A DNA stretch of 64,000 nt from a virus. Its lineage: Duplodnaviria > Caudoviricetes. The position numbers and the translations under genes were made by a program. The stretch is taken from positions 75,731 to 139,730 of IMG/VR virus record IMGVR_UViG_3300028886_000055. The stretch is one strand, 5' to 3'. This document shows, one piece after another, positions 1,619 to 25,589 of this stretch; within the stretch, counting starts at the first letter, position 1; each line of letters opens with the position of its first letter. The notes below the pieces were generated by a model. The model was not told the origin of the DNA. It did no database searches and was given only the letters and a program-made list of their open reading frames with translations.

Positions 1619-3813
1619 CATGTAAATCTAACTGTATCATTATAAGGATTACCATCATAAAGCTGATTAAGTTCGATTTTAACTTTCTATTTATCAATTT
1701 CAGTTTGTCCTTCTTTATAGGTTCTATCAGTCTAAGCTTGATACCATCTGATTTCTTTATCGGTTTCAAGTTTAGCCTATTCTAGTTGTAACTTCTATTC
1801 GTTAAGTTGCTCTAGTTTTTGAGACATTTGCTAGTTCTGCTATTGAAGTTGCTACATCTATTGTTGAGCCTATTCAAGTTGTTGTTGAAGTTGATTAATC
1901 TAGTCTAATTCAGCTTTCTTTTTAGCCCATCCTTTTTTCATCATTTGCTTTAATTCAGTCATACTACGACAAGAAATAGCTTCAGCAGCCATATCTGGCT
2001 CTAGCATATTAGCCTATATCATCTATATGACTGTCTATCTCAACTACTCTAAATCTTTAAGAATTTGAGTTGAAGATATAATATGTATATCATAATCTGT
2101 AACTGTAAAATATTCTGGAAGAATTGTAAATACTTTCTACAAATGATCTCCAAGAATAATAGAACCAGTTAAACCATTTTTCCATACAATTTTAGCCATA
2201 TCAACACAATCAATCAATATATCAGTAACTAAAGTATCCATTTGTTGATAAAATGGCTTTGTGATTGTAAATGAATTTTTAGCTCCGGCTTCTATATTAC
2301 TTACAGCATCACGCTATGTAATTCCATTTAACCTTTCTCTAAATACACCTGTAATTGAAGTTACCTGATTTTCAATACGTTCAAGAACTATTTCAAATGC
2401 TTGAATAGCTTGAACTTTTGTAGCATCATCAAATCCAGACATAAATGTATTGTTATTAAATCCTCTACCTTCTTGTGAAGAATCAATAAGAGCTGTACCA
2501 CCTTTTTTATATGCTAACCATTTCTAGATACGTTCTGTCATATCTGAACCTAAAAATGCAGGAAGCATTGAAACATCAAGCCAATCTCCAATTGTACCGC
2601 TGTTAGCAAGAAGATTATCACGTAAGAAAATAGTTACATCATAACGATCTTGTAAAGTTGTACATTGTAAAACAAGGCTAGTTGGTAAATTATCACGATT
2701 CATCATAAATATACCACCTACTGATAGTTTACAATGTCTTGGAGCATCTTGTGTTCTTATAATATTCTAAGATAATCCAGTAGGAATATATATAGAGTTA
2801 CCTATACGTACACCCTCATATCGATTTTGGATATATTTACCTCCCTATTTATCTACGTCAATCCACTCAACTTCAAATACAGGAAGTAGTTTATACATAT
2901 AAGTTTCGTATCCGTCAATTGGAAATCCAGGCACCACTCGTTTACCATTATCTAAATCTCCTTCCATTGGAGCATGAAGTAATGAATTATTATGTGCAGT
3001 AACATACATAAAATTACCATCTTCATAATGATTATGCATATCATCAAGTTCAGATATTGCATCACGAGTCATTCTATCTCCATATTCTGCAAGAATTTGT
3101 TCTCGGGTCATCCATTTACGAATAACTACACGATAACTATCTTTAACATACGGAGAATCTGGATTTCTATCTACAAACGTATTTAAAGGGTTAAGACATT
3201 CAATAACCAAATTAGTACCTTCGGGAGAAGGTTTAGTACGATAAAAAGCACATCCAGCTATTAACAAGTCTTGGAGTAATATTCTTTTTTTATTTGAAAG
3301 ATCGGTTACTCTAGATTGAGATACATAATCTATAACATTTTGTGCTGCTATTTCGTACTCACTTATAAAATTGTTATCAATGTCTTCGATAAGTTTATTT
3401 ATTTGCTAATCAATAGCTGGATCTTTTAAATCCTTTCCATTTACAAAATCAAGAATCTATTTATTTAAATCTTGTTTATATAAATTAAAAAGTTGTCGTT
3501 TTATCTCAAGTAGTTTATCTCTATTTATGTTAGTTAGAGTCTATTCATCTTTACAAGAAACTTTAGCAATTGTTGGTACATCCAAATATTCGCCAAGTAA
3601 TGCATCTACATGCTTTTTAATTAACGGTGTAAACTCAACTTGTGTTGGATTACCTATACCAAAATTTTCTTCAAGATACCTAAACTATTCAGAATCTCGT
3701 CTACCGTTATAGTAATTATAAGCTTTCTATAATTTAAATTTATGATGGACAAGTTCATTAATAGCTTTGTCTACTTGTTCTATTACATATTCTTTACCCC
3801 TCGCAGCAGCCAC
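1618..3813 (-). CDS. Portal protein, crAss-like, 731 aa, code 15
   Basis: GTG start; KAYNYYNGRRD..FRYLEENFGIGNPTQVEFTPLIKKHVDALLGEY; track fragments 2524 and 2845 share this frame and are joined by TAGs; Gln-rich coiled-coil C-terminus; next to terminase. Confidence 0.9.
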
Positions 3814-4072
3814 GTGTAAAATATAATTTTTTTAATTCCGAAAATTCTATACTGTCCCAATGAATCTTTCGTAATTCTTTACATATAAAATTAAGAAACT
3901 ATTCTGCGTTTCCATCAAACGCACATTCATAAGGAATATCATTATGCCCAAAACCTAACTGTAATTTATAACCAGATTTAAGTTTAATTACTTTGATCAT
4001 TCCAGTATATTCTTTTTCATAAACGTTTTTAATAATATCCAAGACTGCTGATTCTAAGTCTTTCGTATCCAT
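3794..4072 (-). CDS. Small protein between terminase and portal, 92 aa, code 15
   Basis: Track ORF 3899..4087 extends through TAG to TAA at 3794 (...TRGCCEG*). Confidence 0.75.
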
Positions 4073-6311
4073 AATATGAATCAACATCTATTATATTTGT
4101 GTCTATTGTAGCATTAACTTCAGTTGTAGGAGCTTTAGGAATTCTACCTTTGTGAATAATTCCACGTTCATCTTTCCAATAGCCAAAGTCTTCAAATTTA
4201 TCTTGTTGCGAATCTATTTTTGGCTAAACAAACATTAATTCTTCATTAGCAAGAAATGCCATTTGCATAGCAGCTACAATATCAAATTTTCTTTTATTTT
4301 CATAAGAATATCTTGACAATTCATCAAGGATTTCTCTAAACCAAATTTCACCACAATATTCATCAATATAATCAGAGATCATATCAAGTCCATGTTTAAT
4401 TGTAGTTTCGTTGGCTGGAGCACCAAATTGTCGACTTTTACCGTTCTATATATCGGATTGACAGGCTCTAGGTCTTCGCATTAAATAACGATTTTCACAT
4501 TTTTTACTTCTAAAGAATTGAAGTAAAGATATACGAGTAGATTCAAGGCAAGCTTTCGCATTATACCATTGTAATAATCTCAGACACATTACATGTGCAT
4601 CCCTAACTTTTTGTGGCCTATCTTTATAATAAGCTACAATTTGAGGAGGATGCATACCATAAGCACGTCTAAGTATTACTACACAGAAATCAGATGGATC
4701 TTTATAACTAGCAGATGTATCTTCCTAACCTAAATCAATACCGTCAATTCCAGCAACATATAAATTAACTGGAACTTGTTTATCATCATCTATTTTAGGA
4801 GCTTCTAACACATGAACTTTTCCACCTTGTTGTGATACAAATTTCACACCTTCGATCATTTCATCAGTAACAACATTATCTTTAAATATGTATTCCAAAG
4901 TTCCATGCTAGATTGTAGGTACATCTTTACCATTCATAAGTATCCTAGCCATCTATTCTGCAATAAGTGCTTGGTCGAATTGGTTTTCACCTTCAAGAGC
5001 AAATGCTTCTTCTGCTGTAAAACAGTGTTCAGCACATTCGCGTTTATACTCTTTTGGCATACTTAATAGATTGTTTCGAGTTAGATTTCTAAACTTTTTA
5101 ACTTCCTCTCTATCAACTACACCTCTGTCATCAATAAATCGTATATATTTACCTTCTTCTGATTCATATCCATCTTTTAAAATAAAGTCAGCTGCAGATA
5201 CAAAAAATCCTGATAATTTGTATTCACCACTATCAAAATTATTATGTCTGTATGGAAGTATATTAAAAGCAATTGGATTATAAAACATATCTCTTAACTA
5301 ATCCACTGATTTCATATCACCTCCGGTACCAAATACAATTCTTGTACCTATCTTATTACCTCCAACTTCTACAAGAGCATTACCTTTAATATAAGTTTCT
5401 TTTAAAATAGGATTTGAACCTGCTTCTTCGTATAAGAGTAGATCAATACGATCACCACGAAGTTTACTAGACTAATCTATGACTAATCCTTCTATATCAG
5501 AATTCCAGGAGTTTGGTAATTCTTCACGCTATTTATTTATTTTTGATGCCTTTTTATGATAAGCAGTATTCATTTTCTAACGAACGTGTCTCATACCGCC
5601 TTCTGTATCAGCATTTAAAAAGTCTAACTATAGCCAAGCTTTTTTTAATGAGTCAGATACGAATTTGTCAGTTGCAGCAATTATAACATTGTGAGTATTA
5701 CGTCTAGTACTGTAATTATTAACTAATAAACTAGCTCCAATTTCTGACCAGCCAATACCACGACTTTTAACTGTTAAAACATCATGTTTTAATATCTAAC
5801 CCATCTCTATATAATGAAAATATTCGTATTGCTTATCAACAAAAGCTGGAAATATTAAACCTCTACCCTAGCCTGCTTTTTTAACATCAGTTTCGGGTAG
5901 TCTATAATAATTTAAAAAGAAATAGTGATCTCCAGTAATTCTATAACCATTAACACTCATACCGTTATTACATCGATCATATTCCTTTTTCCAAAAATCC
6001 ATATAAGCTTTAGTTCCCTATGGGTATGAACAATATTTACCTGTCTGTAATTTAACTTCTCTAGCTTCTGTAAACCATTCTGGTTTAAAGTCTAAACCCT
6101 TAGTTTTAGTTAACGGTCTGTAACCAGTTAATTCATAAGATAAATCAGAATCAAAATAATCAATTTTATCGTTTAATTTAACGTCCCAAGTCATTACGTC
6201 TTTATTAAATAAAGACTCTCTTAAAGCTTGTATATTATTATCAAGTGCTTGCTACTAGAGTTTATCCTAATTTATTTTTAAAGTAGGATTCTATTTCTTT
6301 TTACGAGGCAT
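4029..6311 (-). CDS. terL: Terminase large subunit, 760 aa, code 15
   Basis: GYRITGDHYFFLNYY; Walker A VKSRGIGWSE; Walker B LLYEEAGS; coupling motif FGTGGD; nuclease YVAGIDGID..SDFCVV; C-terminal KFDIVAAM; track fragments 4446 and 4953 are in this frame. Confidence 0.95.
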
Positions 6312-18338: not shown

Positions 18339-18348
18339 ATAAAATTAG

Positions 18349-18422
18349 TCGGGGATCTCGGACTCGAACCGAGACCTTGGGTTTTAGAGACCCTTGCGCT
18401 AACCTAATTACGCTAATCCCCA
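18349..18422 (-). tRNA. Amber suppressor tRNA (anticodon CUA), Gln-like acceptor
   Basis: TGGGGAT...ATCCCCG-A acceptor; anticodon loop CT-CTA-AA; T loop GGTTCGAGTCC; 5' UGGGG resembles tRNA-Gln. Confidence 0.92.
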
Positions 18423-19471: not shown

Positions 19472-21650
19472 TTAATGATTTCCTTTGAACTAAAATTTTC
19501 TAGGAATTAATCTTCCACCTTTTCGATTAGATTGAATTAATCCGTAGCTCCCTATTATTGGAACTGATATACTTAATACTGAATTAATATATTTTTTAAC
19601 CGATTCTGGTGTATAATATCTTTCTAACTATTCCTAATTTAATGTTTTATAAGTTGGTTTTAAATTCTACATTAACTATGAAGTGTATCCTCTAGCGTAT
19701 AATTCCTGTTCATCTGTAGCATACTTAAAATGTCTATATTGTTCTAATAAATCATTAATTTCACTTGGAGAGTAATTATTCCATTTTAAATAATGTTTTA
19801 ATACGTTTTCAGAATCAAAATCACTAAATAATTTTCCTTTTTCATTTAGTTCTAATGTTGTATCAGCTATTGTTTTATTTTTTCTTGTAAACTATTTCAT
19901 TCTAGGAAACCATTTTCCAAATTTCGTTGATACAACATCGTTTGGATTCTATCTAATAGATAATGTTTTTCCATGTCCTCCAATTTCATGAATAATAGTT
20001 TCTAAAGCCTACTCCACATTTGCAATTCTATCTTTATTTAAGGATAGTTTTTGTCTTGCTTCAGCATTTGTTCCTTCACCAATAACTTTACCAGAACTAG
20101 ATCCTATATCTGTAAAACCGCTTTGTAAATCTCTAATATTAACATCAGCTTGAGTTCCTAAGATACGCATTAATTCATCCTAAAATTCATCATATTCTTT
20201 ATCTCCCCAATGCATTTCAGATTTAACTTGTTCAATTTTTTGAGGATTAGTAAAATAATCTTTTAAAACATCTATTTGAGAATCATAAGCCATTTGAGAT
20301 AATTCGTTATCTGTTCCAGGAAATGGAGTTGGAGTTATTTCTTTTCCAAACGAATCTTTTAAATAAGCTTCTCCCTATGAATGAGAATTAAGAGGTTTCT
20401 CACCTTTTATAAAACTATTTCCAGTAAACGTTTGTAAATTGCCATCTTTATCCGTATAGATTAATGTACCTGTAGTATTTCCACGTTGGAATCTAGGATC
20501 TCTAGATAAATGAGTTAATGCTGCTACTGTACCTCTAGTTGCAGGATAATCAGCACTAGATTCTGGGAATAATATTTCAGCACCTTCAGGAAGTTCATTA
20601 TATACTGATTCAAATAATGCAGTTTTTTCTTGAGGGTTTAGATTAGCTGGAATGTGATCACCATCCCAAGTTCGGATATGTAATTCATATTGCTTATTTC
20701 CATGAGGTACTAATACAATTTCTCTAGGTTTTTCTTGAGTATGTGAAGGTAAACGTAAACGTATTTTATCTCCTGATACTTTAGTTATTTGATATGGATT
20801 ATCAAATTTATGTAAAATGGATGGTGTATATAAAGACTGTTTGTCTACAGATTCATTTACAGCTTTAGCTAAATCTTTAGTAGTTGGATTAATTGGAATT
20901 CCTTTAAATGTATTATCTAAAGCTAGTTGATCTAAAGCTTCCTTAGTTAAAGTACGTCCTGCGTTTGCTACTTGTTTGCCAACAAGATCTCCAGTAACAT
21001 AAAAAGGTAAATCTCCAACCATCTAAATTCCAAAATCTCCCCATTGACTCTATGGAATACCTAAATAATGGGCAGCATTAACTGCATGTTCTCCTAGAGT
21101 TTTACCTGTTCCATACTTCATAGCTTGATTTAATGCTTCACCAAACGCAGTAGTTCCTATAATGTTACCACCTAACGTTCCTGGTGCTAAGAAAGGAGCT
21201 AACGTTGCTCCTCCGATACCCGCTAATGTTGCAGCTACAGGAGCGACAACAAACGTTCCAGCTCCAGGAGTTAATTGATTTGCTTTTCTATCAGCAGCTC
21301 GTAATCTCATCTATTGTCCTATTTTGTCATTAGCATCATATTGCTAAGTAAAATAGTTATTTAAATTTTTGGTAAATGGAGATAGGTTCTATTGATCATA
21401 AAAATAATCATAAGCGGTAGTTAAACCCTTATTTTTAAGAAAGTTATTAACGATATTAGATGGAAGTAAATACCCATCTTCTCCTGCTAAATAGTACTCT
21501 TCTCCCTATTTCTAAGCAGTACCTAATAGCCTATCGTCTGGTTTTATATCCGAGCGTGGTATATAATGCCAACCAGTTCCTTCAAAAATCTTTATCTGTA
21601 TATCTTTTATTTAAAGCTCCTGCTGGAGACTAATATTTTTTAATTCTCAT
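19472..21650 (-). CDS. KKYQ-family code-15 protein, about 725 aa, with a Gly/Ala hydrophobic segment and C-terminal zincin-like metallopeptidase; one +1 frameshift at 21584..21588
   Basis: MRIKKY[TAG]SPAG...; TIIHEIGGH...EQELYARG; C-terminal RKGGRLIPRKFQ; joins track ORFs 21050 and 20375. Confidence 0.75.
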
Positions 21651-21786
21651 ATTATTTTAAGCTTAAAATTTTTACATTTCCTATATTAATATATTATTAT
21701 ATAAATTTATATATATTATAGTATATAAACTACTGAATATAAAAGTATTGAAATATATAAAGCTGAGATATAGTTAAAGTCTAAAA

Positions 21787-21849
21787 AATACCCCCGTAGG
21801 TAAATATATAAAAATTGAAGTTCTGAAAATAGACCCCCCCGGGGGTATT
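21787..21849. repeat. GC-rich inverted repeat and palindrome at the strand switch
   Basis: AATACCCCCG (21787) / CGGGGGTATT (21840); CCCCCGGGGG palindrome at 21836..21845. Confidence 0.7.
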
Positions 21850-21985
21850 GATAGGAAAGCGATTTGCTAGATAATTGAAATTTTGGATATGTTGGGAGAG
21901 GGAGAGGAGTATCCCCTTTTACACCTCCTACCACTTTTTGATAGAAAGTAAATAATTTTATTAACAATTTTAAAATTTTACAACA

Positions 21986-22423
21986 ATGAAAAAATTTAGT
22001 GATTACAGTACCGAGCGTGCTAGCAACTTGTCTGGAACTTCTTATGTGGAAGTGAGCGACACAGTGACTATTGGTCAACTTGCTTTAGTGGGGACTACAA
22101 TCCTCAAAAGTGGGAAAATTGCAATGTACGCTCTCGTTGGCAAGGACTCTAGTGGCAATGATGCTGTCGCAAAACAGCAAAACTCGAAAGGGGATAACAT
22201 CAATCCCACGCCTCGAGCACTAGCAACCGTCAGTGAGAATGGCGACTTGTTGCGTGTGAGTTATCTTCGCTTGTTGGCAAACGCTGCAAAGGTTAAGATT
22301 ACTTTCAGCGCTGACAAGAAGTCGTACACGCTCGCCAAACCGATTGTTATCGACGAATTGCCCGTTTGGGATAGAGAAGCGGGCAAGTACACTGGCAAGT
22401 GTAACGCTACCGCTATCGACTAA
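21986..22423 (+). CDS. First plus-strand (early) gene, hypothetical, higher GC
   Basis: ORF track; followed by a terminator. Confidence 0.75.
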   Translation: MKKFSDYSTERASNLSGTSYVEVSDTVTIGQLALVGTTILKSGKIAMYALVGKDSSGNDAVAKQQNSKGDNINPTPRALATVSENGDLLRVSYLRLLANAAKVKITFSADKKSYTLAKPIVIDELPVWDREAGKYTGKCNATAID

Positions 22424-22454
22424 AAAAATTGGGGGTTTCCCCCAATTTTTTTTT
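22422..22454. terminator. Intrinsic terminator
   Basis: AAAAAAATTGGGGG ttt CCCCCAATTTTTTTTT. Confidence 0.85.
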
Positions 22455-22489
22455 GTTCGCTCGCTCGTTCTTAAATCGGTAAAAAGGTT

Positions 22490-22687
22490 ATGTCCAATAA
22501 TCTAATTACCGTAAAGATTACTCCTATCAGGAGTAACGTGTACAAAGTTGAGGGAATTGAGAATGAATTTTATGATATAAATTTGTTCTCAGACGGGATG
22601 ATCGGTAAGAAATTCTACGCTCTTATCCGTCCCAGATCTCCACTTGATGTTATCTATCGTCTTGTAAAATGTGAACAAGACAATTGA
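22490..22687 (+). CDS. Hypothetical early protein
   Basis: ORF track. Confidence 0.6.
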   Translation: MSNNLITVKITPIRSNVYKVEGIENEFYDINLFSDGMIGKKFYALIRPRSPLDVIYRLVKCEQDN

Positions 22688-23024
22688 ATAGCCCTGACAA
22701 CTAACCTACATTTTTCAAATTTTCGAGGGTTAGTTATGAATAAGAGAAAATTTTGTTTCCAAAGTCGGTACAGGGACTAAGGAGTAAAAACAGAAAGAAG
22801 TCCCAAGTGGATGAGCACTCTGTACGCTGTACGAACAATTAAAGATGTAGCACTGAAGTGAGTAAGTGTGATGAATTTGTATCGGTAAAACTATGGCAAC
22901 ATAGTAGATGTTATCCTTGCAGCAAGGACGTGATAAGGATAGAGAAGATCACTTATGCTCCAACTCTCTATCTACGTGATATGGAACATTGCTTCTACGA
23001 GAGCATCGTGTTAAGGAAGCTTTT

Positions 23025-23101
23025 GGTCCTATAGCTCAGTTGGTTAGAGCACCTGACTCATAATCAGGGAGTCCTTGGTTCAAGCCCAAGTAGGACCACC
23101 A
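23025..23101 (+). tRNA. tRNA with CAU anticodon, Ile2-like (or elongator Met), CCA encoded
   Basis: GGTCCTATAGCTCAGTTGGTTAGAGCACCTGACTCATAATCAGG...TAGGACCACCA. Confidence 0.9.
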
Positions 23102-24001
23102 CGTTATCTAATACAAGATGCTCGTAATACCATATTCCCAGGGGGAAGTGAGGTAACAAAGTTACGTGAGTATTTAGATAACTAACAGCGTATCTAGCGA
23201 GTGAGAAGGCTATGTATAGAGGCTTTTTGGTGATGCTAAACCATTTTTTTTACTAACTTTATAAGCCTGTAGGTGTATTGGTTAACCTTCATTTTATGTA
23301 TTTTTAATTAAAGGTTGGCCTCAACCTTGGCGGGAATTCAGATTCACTATATGGTGAATCTCCTTGCCTAAATTAAGTGGCATTTGTAAGATTGCAACAA
23401 CGGCATCGGTTGTTGGGAACTAAGCAAAGAGCGGATGTAGAATGTTAGTGGATAGACCTCACTAAAAGTGACTTAAACAACAATATCATTTGATATTGGA
23501 GGGAGAAAAGTATCTAGTTTTCCTGGGTTTCTAAATGGAAAGGATACTCCCTTGTTTAAGTTGCCGTACGCATTTGTCAGTAGCGTGTTTTTTGAATAAC
23601 TGTCATTTAAAAATTATGTGTATAGTAAGTCGAAACCCAGGTAGTAGAAGGTACTAAGAAGATTCCTAATCCTATTAACTTGATAGGTAGTTATGCTGTG
23701 TATGATCGCTCAATAACATCGGCGGTCTACTTTGAACTTTGAGTTTGTTGCAGCATCTCAGAGTTCAGCATAATTAGTCTGTGATCGCTGCAACGATTGT
23801 ATGACGAAGCGTTCCCACTAGGTGGAGAGAAGTCTCTGCGTCGCGACTAGTTGGGAAGTTGGACATGAGTGTTGGAGTCCAACAAGTGAATAAGACACTC
23901 CAAAGGGTGTTTGTAAAGAGACCTACAGTTCTGTGAAATACTAGTCAGAACATTTTTCTACATCTGAGCTTCCTTACATAGATGGAATACTGATGTAGAA
24001 A

Positions 24002-24063
24002 TCTTTAATGCAGCCATTCTTTGGAATGAGAGTCACAAGCCTCTATAAATTGCAGAGTGGAGA
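24002..24063 (+). ncRNA. Twister ribozyme (P1 type)
   Basis: UCUUUAAUGCAGC-CAUUCuuugGAAUG-AGAGUCACAAGCCUCU-AUAAAUUGCAGAGUGGAGA: UA cleavage dinucleotide, P2 UGCA/UGCA, P3, P4 and pseudoknot CAC/GUG as in twister consensus. Confidence 0.85.
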
Positions 24064-24670
24064 AAGAGATAAAAACAGGTCTGGCTACGAAAGGTTCGAC
24101 TCCTACTAGTGAATATCGTTATGTAAACATCTATAGTACCGTTTGCATAAAATAGCTCAAGGATATCCCTGGATTCGGAATCTATCTCTTTTCTTTTTAA
24201 ATAAAATTTTTAATAGTGCTGAAGCAAGAAAACAGTCAGCACGGTTTAAAAAACTCAATAACTTCCCAAGTCGTTGAGGGCACCAGTTTCTTGGTAATAT
24301 AGACAGTAAGCAAGTCGGTAGTGAGTTTAAAACGACAACTATTCCCAAACTACCATCACCCGCAGGGAGATTGCCGCAGATGGGTTTAAAGCGGAGATAC
24401 TGTTTACCAAGTTTTAGGTGTAAAACGCAAAAAGGTAGAAGGTACCTGTATGTTCCTAATCCTGTTAGTATAAGTTGTATTAGCAGGTATAAGTTCTGAA
24501 TATCTGACAGAACGGATTTGTGCAGAAATAGTCAAGAACGCACCATAAACATTACTTGACTAACCAACCTAAAGAAAATTAATTAGGTCGTAGTATTCTA
24601 CGTTTGGTTGGTTTTGGGAGTTTATAAACCCATGTAAAACCTATTTTTATTAATTTTTAGTTTAACTATC

Positions 24671-24880
24671 ATGACAAAGATCTTTAAAACAAAACAAGGT
24701 TCTATTCTCTACTATGATGGAGAAAGAAAGCTTCTTTATGTACAAACAAAAGAGGCTTTGAGTGACATCATGGCATCTCTTAATGAAGATGCTAAGAGTA
24801 TTAATCCTGTCGATAGAATGTGTGCACAAGATATTCTTGCCGACATTGAGAAGTTAGGCATAACGACACAAGTGTTTTAG
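24671..24880 (+). CDS. Hypothetical early protein ending in TAG used as stop
   Basis: ORF track; followed by structured intergenic sequence. Confidence 0.7.
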   Translation: MTKIFKTKQGSILYYDGERKLLYVQTKEALSDIMASLNEDAKSINPVDRMCAQDILADIEKLGITTQVF

Positions 24881-25142: not shown

Positions 25143-25589
25143 ATGACACCAAACATTAAGAAAACAGAAACGGGAGTATCTGTACAAATAGTACTCCCGT
25201 TTGTTGAAGGGAATAGTATTCCCAAGTTGAGAAAGACACCTAAATATCAGTGTCTCAAAGACAACAAAGAAGCGTTAATCAAGGCCGTTAAAACACGTAT
25301 GCAAGCGTGTTATGACGATCTTGTTGCAGGAATGGACAACATCGTGTATAATGATGGTATGACCATTCATTACAAAATTGAGGATAAATATTCTTATTTC
25401 AACCTTCCGAGTTGGGAGGTTATGGAGAAGCTTCTCAAAGCACTTGAGGAGGATGCTTATTATAACTGGGATATTCCCATGTATGAGCAACTTCTCAAGT
25501 CAGTTGTTCTGCATTCTGAGGCCACACTTTATAAGGATTATGACAAGATGGTTTGTTATTTAATTAACCATCTTGCGGTTCAAGGTTGA
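25143..25589 (+). CDS. Hypothetical early protein
   Basis: ORF track. Confidence 0.7.
   Translation: MTPNIKKTETGVSVQIVLPFVEGNSIPKLRKTPKYQCLKDNKEALIKAVKTRMQACYDDLVAGMDNIVYNDGMTIHYKIEDKYSYFNLPSWEVMEKLLKALEEDAYYNWDIPMYEQLLKSVVLHSEATLYKDYDKMVCYLINHLAVQG

Follow-up and report, generated by a model that had tools for sequence, protein, structure and literature searches.

The window, by which we mean the whole 64-kb stretch of DNA that was analysed, is the right-hand part of an IMG/VR virus record of 139.7 kb, whose completeness is estimated at 78%. Its minus-strand late genes, which include those for the portal and the large terminase, can be read only if TAG is a sense codon, and a suppressor tRNA(CTA) is encoded at 18348-18422. 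The terminase is nearest to those of crAss-like phages (57% for an unannotated record from the human gut, ~30% for named Crassvirales), and the record names of related contigs indicate sheep rumen and gut samples. A strand switch and the minimum of the cumulative GC skew both lie near 21.4-21.9 kb. The plus-strand block starts at 21986 and is presumably the early block; 0.7 kb into it, past two small ORFs, begins the gene-free stretch studied here (22690-24660), which we term the island, and the first ORF 3' of it is found at 24671. The GC content of the island is 0.36-0.43, compared with 0.31-0.33 in the downstream flank and 0.43-0.48 in the gene just upstream (22000-22600), such that the higher GC content claimed for the block in the original prediction holds against the downstream flank and fails against the GC-richer upstream gene.

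The phage lineage that carries the island is rare. Searches using flanking proteins and sequence patterns gave five island haplotypes from rumen and gut assemblies: that of the window, which is identical in L009, L010 and L012; that of L002, a 77.8-kb IMG/VR contig, which is identical in L006, L007 and L017; two further haplotypes on the two short JGI contigs L020 and L016; and a reduced haplotype in the Logan assemblies L026/L027. The short contigs Ga0255060/61 consist of island sequence alone. When IMG/VR was searched via the flanking proteins, three proteins returned no relatives and one returned a single contig. The nearest GenBank relative, MT835470.1 (57% in TerL), has no island-like gaps or tRNAs in the 64 kb examined.

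The original prediction had stated that the block holds no plausible coding sequence, and this is borne out in code 11, with TAG read as glutamine (TAG=Q) and in code 4. No ORF of more than 65 aa lies within 22690-24660 in code 11; the longer frames that appear with TAG=Q or in code 4 are mostly on the minus strand, need one to five recoded stops and match no Pfam or PHROG family. Gene callers applied to the independent assemblies placed zero genes in the stretch. Substitutions relative to three other haplotypes are spread over the codon phases without three-base periodicity (13/16/18, 13/19/20 and 16/17/17) and the majority of small indels between haplotypes are not multiples of three, whereas the adjoining 148-aa gene, used as a control, has an excess at third positions (e.g. 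16/6/46). The features that were instead found in and beside the island are collected in Table 1.

Table 1. Features of the island and its upstream neighbourhood, with positions counted from the first letter of the window.
Feature	Position	Strand	Remarks
Perfect 14-bp palindromic hairpin	22422..22452	.	A/T-run flanks, bidirectional terminator-like; inverted repeat 100% complementary; upstream of island
S0, conserved leader upstream of tRNA	22684..23024	+	97% identical in L002; two haplotypes
tRNA, anticodon CAT (Met or Ile2 type)	23025..23101	+	CCA encoded; Rfam 72.6 bits (vs 29) and ARAGORN
S2, window-specific spacer	23102..23292	+	Weak, degenerate terminator-like remnant near 23228-23256
S3, 83-nt RNA	23301..23383	+	Three helices (outer helix around two hairpins); five haplotypes
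S4, hairpin and linker	23384..23442	+	Hairpin 23395-23401/23409-23415; unrelated longer sequence in L002
M5, 122-nt six-helix RNA	23444..23565	+	Hairpin plus branched domain; apical loop invariant
M7, ~225-nt multi-stem RNA	23636..23860	+	98-100% identical in four haplotypes; folding z -2.15
S8, variable segment	23861..24001	+	hpY (23925-23954) and pre-twister hairpin (23957-23999)
Twister-P1 (RF03160)	24002..24063	+	59.7 bits, E 2.7e-12; 59.9 bits in L002
M10, ~127-nt RNA	24064..24200	+	8-bp closing helix, then U-rich tail
hpX, 7-bp hairpin	24216..24242	+	Loop 13-65 nt by haplotype; recurs ahead of relatives' modules
M11	24243..24432	+	Conserved 5' hairpin; closing helix 24280-24284/24417-24421; interior swapped in L002
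M12, ~216-nt RNA	24433..24648	+	98-99% identical in three haplotypes, flanks 72-90%

At the upstream end of the island, the homology of S0 to its counterpart in the relative sets in exactly where unrelated upstream ORFs have their stop codon, and a TTG / TAnnTTT pair at this point (22684-22714) was noted by inspection as a possible promoter-like candidate. S0 is not claimed as structured because its folding z is only -0.43; S2 scores -0.32, and the two segments together (about 530 nt) gave no evidence of structure. The tRNA that had been placed inside the block was recovered by ARAGORN and by the Rfam model RF00005, with a cloverleaf above threshold and its anticodon. In the L002 haplotype the same slot is filled by a tRNA-Ile(TAT), and homology between the two haplotypes breaks exactly at the tRNA borders. 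Where the window has S2, one or two small ORFs stand in the relatives L002 and L026, along with canonical GC-rich terminators; the ORFs of L002 measure 93 and 106 aa.

Downstream of S2, the island contains at least five structured RNAs of 80-230 nt that are outside described families (S3, M5, M7, M10, M11 and M12). A search of Rfam 15 at E values up to 10, using lax filters and short sub-windows, matched the tRNA and the twister only, in agreement with the earlier statement that most units are not recognisable. The four stems that had been named at the outset (22773-22778/22799-22804, the hairpin 22892-22905, 23470-23480/23554-23564, which is the outer helix of M5, and 23813-23858) were all found in the sequence. 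Smaller elements recur within and between the modules. M10 contains a 3-bp hairpin capped by a 7-nt T-loop-like loop, and hpY is present once in the window and twice in L020/L016, with a closing pair that is either U-A or C-G in six copies. M7 and M12 are both headed by a two-box element (23644-23672 and 24435-24462), in which boxes of 11 nt and 10 nt stand 7-8 nt apart and have a hairpin of varying length after them; each genome has two copies, and the element is confined to the relatives of the island. The possibility that this element represents a widespread family was rejected, the other metagenome matches being one unrelated repeat and one site on a 500-kb contig that was put down to chance. 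Its second box has 7-nt complementarity to the 790 region of 16S rRNA, which we take to be at chance level and dismissed. A search for the S3 pattern in GTDB genomes likewise gave nothing beyond one match in a cyanobacterial MAG, ascribed to chance.

What speaks for RNA structure is covariation and not folding energy: in thermodynamic stability, the island does not stand out from its background. Folding z ranges from -0.3 (S0, S2) to -3.2 (M5, M11, M12), with M11 at -3.06 in the window and -2.63 in L002; a genuine coding control scored -6.4, on account of which the measure was discarded, and M12 scored -3.2 on its reverse strand and -3.24 on its forward strand. In S3, compared over five haplotypes, 22 pairs are 98.2% paired and three of them carry compensatory changes; the covariation score is 0.218, compared with 0.105 in shuffles (none of 500 as good), and it collapses when the partners are slid. 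Independent minimum-free-energy folds of the window and L020 versions of M5 arrive at the same six helices, even though the two have almost no sequence in common in the 10-11-bp outer helix. The M5 model R1, built only from the window and L002, finds L020/L016 at 68.6 bits, and its 42 pairs are 98.4% paired with 8 compensatory changes, in an alignment that was fitted to the model. For M10, 34 pairs are 98% paired and three are compensatory, two of these lying in the T-loop-like hairpin; the statistics here are weak (27 of 500 shuffles as good) because there are only three distinct sequences. Independent folds of M11 from the window and L002 keep the 5' hairpin and the closing helix around an entirely different interior, and the second helix differs between the two by compensatory changes. 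M7 and M12, at 98-100% identity, are too conserved for a covariation test, and the counts for the other modules are small because the five haplotypes amount to two or three sequence types per module. Both S3 and M5 have many conserved G-U/U-G pairs, which on the other strand would be A-C mismatches; these are therefore RNAs read from the plus strand, as are the tRNA and the twister. The structured RNAs that had been expected of the block are thus seen, on checking for covariation, in the compensatory changes that preserve the helices of S3, M5, M10 and M11, and the gene-free 2-kb stretch of this uncultured, TAG-recoded crAss-like phage of the rumen is best read as a series of small RNA genes, each with a fold of its own.

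The twister ribozyme, also named in the original prediction, is a full-length match to twister-P1 that scores below the Rfam gathering threshold of 67.2 bits. It aligns over model positions 1-68 with P1, P2 and P4 (plus P3) formed in the type-P1 arrangement, as does the copy in L002; the UAA junction and the GCNGCC, AAGCC and UAAA blocks are present, and the U-A cleavage step is kept. The sub-threshold score is explained by two departures from the consensus (CAC for CCC in L4 and GUG for GGG in L1), which are complementary to each other. Positions in L4 and L1 pair as the pseudoknot T1 in published twister structures (PMC5408937), and a covariance model gives no credit for pseudoknot covariation. 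We infer that the deviant bases belong to T1, and their complementarity argues for an active ribozyme. The scissile bond is predicted to lie between U24006 and A24007, so that after cleavage the ribozyme should remain joined to M10, at its 5' end. L020 and L016 lack the twister core between the same flanking sequences; no Rfam ribozyme class substitutes for it there, and just upstream of the twister-less site both carry an insert with the second copy of hpY. No twister was found in MT835470.1 or MT835539.1.

Comparison of the haplotypes revealed turnover of the modules. In the reduced haplotype (L026/L027), the end of S3 is joined directly to the middle of the M12 hairpin, and ~1.1 kb of modules, corresponding to 23384-24464 of the window, is missing, namely S4, M5, M7, S8, the twister, M10 and M11. 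Module order also differs, with M12 preceding the body of M11 in L002 and following M11 in the window, and the haplotypes are mosaic, since L020 has S8 in common with the window and M5 in common with L016. Several assemblies break in or beside the island, which fits population-level heterogeneity at the locus. The modules behave like independent cassettes that related phages gain, lose, swap and reorder; from these sequences, most units appear to be dispensable in some circulating phage. Such units may nonetheless be covered by shared read-through transcription.

Taken as a whole, the explanation that we consider probable is that of a plus-strand island of separate small non-coding RNA genes, with the transcription, processing and accessory role that follow. 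The host RNA polymerase or the phage's own would read rightward through the island, early, producing a single precursor or a small number of them. The tRNA would be released by host RNase P and by trimming at its 3' end, which would separate the upstream leader from the downstream RNA, and the twister would cut between U24006 and A24007, giving a 5'-hydroxyl on a twister-plus-M10 RNA that would end at the closing helix and U-tract; the remaining modules would owe their stability to the helices at their ends. The processing model of the original prediction, one polycistronic transcript divided into units by tRNA maturation and self-cleavage, is a plausible candidate. The comparative data weaken it, and with it the view of the twister and tRNA processing as essential cutters: the twister is absent from two haplotypes that keep the flanking modules, one lineage is without ~1.1 kb of modules, and the canonical terminators inside the island of relatives argue against one obligatory long precursor. 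The search for promoters yielded none that was convincing, with no enrichment of the Bacteroidota -7 motif in a scan and with sigma-70-like sites matching as often in shuffled sequence. Of the four occurrences of an AT-rich box (WATTTTTARTW) in the 64 kb, three are on the plus strand within the island and directly precede S3, hpX and the first ORF downstream. The box is of low information and was noticed post hoc; it may stand for promoters or for sites of processing. As for function, an accessory role in modulating the host or the infection, for example as decoys or regulators, is the most likely one for these RNAs, rather than a core part in replication; their turnover favours this, as does the finding that most of the modules can be dispensed with in one circulating relative or another.

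A related, rather doubtful reading would make the island the RNA counterpart of the islands of anti-defence and accessory genes, that is, a recombination hot spot with interchangeable cassettes directed against host defence or RNA handling, each of which could be a decoy, sponge or inhibitor; one of the cassettes could, in addition, be a new self-cleaving or processing motif, for which the best candidates could be the two-box element of M7 and M12 and hpY, the latter being duplicated where the twister is missing. It is also conceivable, if on balance unlikely, that the RNAs are real and that each is transcribed separately, from a promoter of its own to a terminator of its own, such that neither tRNA processing nor the twister is a defining feature. 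The placement of three of the four AT-rich boxes would be in keeping with this, as would the terminator-like ends after M10 and, in relatives, before S3, and the fact that modules move independently; however, the box carries little information and was recognised after the fact, the relatives' terminator is ~20 nt from S3, which is too short for a separate promoter, and no known promoter consensus matches.

We think it very unlikely that the stretch goes untranscribed and serves as an origin of replication, a site for packaging or a landing pad for regulators, with hairpins that act as DNA. Its distance from the strand switch and from the minimum of the cumulative GC skew near 21.5 kb is ~1 kb, and assemblies often break in or beside it, but the AT-rich strand-switch region at 21400-21900 is the better candidate for an origin and haplotype variation accounts for the breaks; moreover, the tRNA and the twister are RNA genes, and the helices accept G-U pairs and show compensatory substitutions that are specific to one strand. 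Descent from decayed or unusually recoded protein genes is highly improbable in the face of absent codon periodicity, mostly frame-breaking indels between haplotypes, a lack of family matches and the absence of gene calls in the assemblies examined, although relatives do have small ORFs at the position of S2, which may itself be a remnant of a deleted gene region, and frames of 108-153 codons are open under TAG=Q or TGA=W. Hardly credible, finally, is one giant ornate RNA of the GOLLD/ROOL type, which is tied to phage tRNA genes: the size of ~2 kb, the neighbouring tRNA, the rumen origin and the many stems would suit it, but neither GOLLD, ROOL nor any other large RNA is matched at E values up to 10, and a conserved long-range architecture is absent. 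Near-identical phages differ by the deletion, insertion, exchange and reordering of modules, and in relatives the region is broken up by protein genes; because the modules vary independently, it is not one large RNA.

Loci of this general kind have been described before. Self-cleaving ribozymes of bacteria and phages cluster together and with unexplained conserved RNA structures near phage genes (PMC6765202), and such ribozyme-associated intergenic arrays include twister, hammerhead, hatchet and pistol ribozymes alongside non-cleaving RAGATH motifs (Weinberg et al. 2015, per PMC6765202). The island resembles them in having a ribozyme within a long intergenic region, among structured RNAs and in a phage context, the ribozyme being interchangeable or optional. 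It is unlike them in that its companions are new modules and the tRNA belongs to the array, and for the island a presence/absence polymorphism between near-identical phages is documented. The hatchet, pistol, twister-sister, hammerhead and RAGATH families gave no match at E values up to 10 in the island or its relatives. In the crAss-like phage phi14:2, transcripts of the long intergenic regions (g004-g006) with which the early block opens exceed those of most genes and last throughout infection (bioRxiv 10.1101/2020.03.07.982082, Drobysheva et al.), which gives a precedent for expression of the island. The island is placed alike, as a gene-free stretch close to where the rightward early block begins in a crAss-like phage, and the gap in phi14:2 is of similar kind at ~1.7 kb (2904-4602); however, neither BLAST nor the R1 model detected similarity between the two, and the phi14:2 region is without a twister or a tRNA and has a near-threshold tmRNA match. 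The non-coding regions of crAss-like phages are not mentioned in the paper of Yutin et al. (2021).

With GOLLD and ROOL RNAs the island has in common that it is phage-associated, near a tRNA gene and from a rumen or gut habitat, whilst it differs in being modular and in giving no match to either model. The tRNA cluster of phage T4 comprises eight tRNAs and the stable RNAs known as species 1 and 2 (rnaC, rnaD), with no ribozyme, and these tRNAs and small stable RNAs are made as common precursors that are matured by tRNA-processing enzymes of the host. This maturation is the mechanism that the original prediction proposed for the island. The parts of the island are all on one strand, without intervening genes in the window haplotype, and relatives have internal terminators; unlike T4, the island has a single tRNA along with a ribozyme, and its other RNAs are numerous and larger. 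In recoded gut phages, theta (HDV-like) ribozymes trim the 3' trailers of tRNAs (PMC10879173). The island is similar in that a recoded gut or rumen phage has a self-cleaving ribozyme and a Met-type tRNA in one non-coding region, and dissimilar in that the ribozyme is a twister 900 nt downstream of the tRNA and not an HDV-like fold abutting its 3' end. A descriptor search for theta/HDV-like folds gave no candidate near 23099-23110 or after the suppressor tRNA, and the 29 matches of a loose HDV-like descriptor elsewhere are within the range of shuffles (1-54).

What is new here is the individual RNA modules and their documented cassette-like turnover; the kind of locus is already known, and on present evidence it is extended by this example rather than a new kind being revealed. 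The locus bears on the question of what phage non-coding RNAs do, among them bacterial and phage twisters and the abundant early long non-coding RNAs of crAss-like phages. Several of its RNAs are compact, have defined boundaries and adopt folds that covariation supports. Natural knock-outs circulate, some relatives lacking the twister and others five of the modules, and these would make functional tests and the mapping of transcript ends straightforward, given a host or a metatranscriptome.

The island, a gene-free block of small RNA modules, differs between related phages. In two contigs, L026 (Logan DRR507852) and L027, one stretch of the island has no counterpart, and the end of the module S3 is fused to the middle of the hairpin of a second module, M12. 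This L026-type circulating relative is a natural deletion in which five modules are gone. A tRNA(CAT) in the window and a tRNA-Ile(TAT) in another contig, L002, from a closely related phage, occupy one slot, and homology between the two haplotypes stops precisely at both of its borders. Because the same slot, with exact borders, holds tRNA-Ile(TAT) in L002, the CAT tRNA may be of the AUA-reading Ile2 type; the slot itself may be a target for the exchange of tRNA cassettes.

Coordinates of features in the window and in related phages
Feature	Coordinates	Strand	Basis
AT-rich box WATTTTTARTW	window 23299-23309; 24205-24215; 24652-24662	+	pattern match
tRNA(CAT)	window 23025-23101		
tRNA-Ile(TAT)	L002 6692-6766		
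14-codon ATG frame	window 22737-22781	+	
Stretch absent from L026 and L027	window 23384-24464		
Deletion-bearing locus	L026 436-751		
Hairpin-containing gene segment	window 25143-25360	+	
tmRNA-model match	phi14:2 (L028, NC_021806.1) 4031-4502	+	Rfam

Three of the four AT-rich boxes in the window lie inside the island (those tabulated), each directly preceding a module or the first ORF, and these could be promoter or processing signals. Directly 3′ of the first hairpin of the leader (S0) is a short ATG frame that is identical in the window and L002 haplotypes; it may encode a leader peptide or be due to chance, and two copies without variation favour neither reading.

A strong predicted fold also lies in the neighbouring 148-aa gene, whose excess of third-position substitutions (16/6/46) marks it as truly protein-coding. 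Its 5′ third contains a long perfect hairpin and folds far more stably than shuffled sequences (z -6.43), and may harbour an embedded RNA element or regulatory structure. In the crAss-like phage phi14:2, a match to the tmRNA model (46.0 bits, E 2.6e-16; just below the gathering score of 47) falls within the highly transcribed early ‘lncRNA’ gap, and one unexplained early transcript of this phage may be a phage tmRNA-like RNA.

Six contigs (L004, L005, L008, L011, L025 and L027), all independent assemblies, break off inside or beside the island, 30-770 nt ahead of the 148-aa gene, which suggests that strain-level variation breaks assembly graphs here. Two short contigs, L016 (Ga0255060_10086773; 1.4 kb) and L020 (Ga0255061_10071245; 1.7 kb), contain little besides the island; should their samples prove to be metatranscriptomes, both would directly demonstrate that long transcripts of the island exist.
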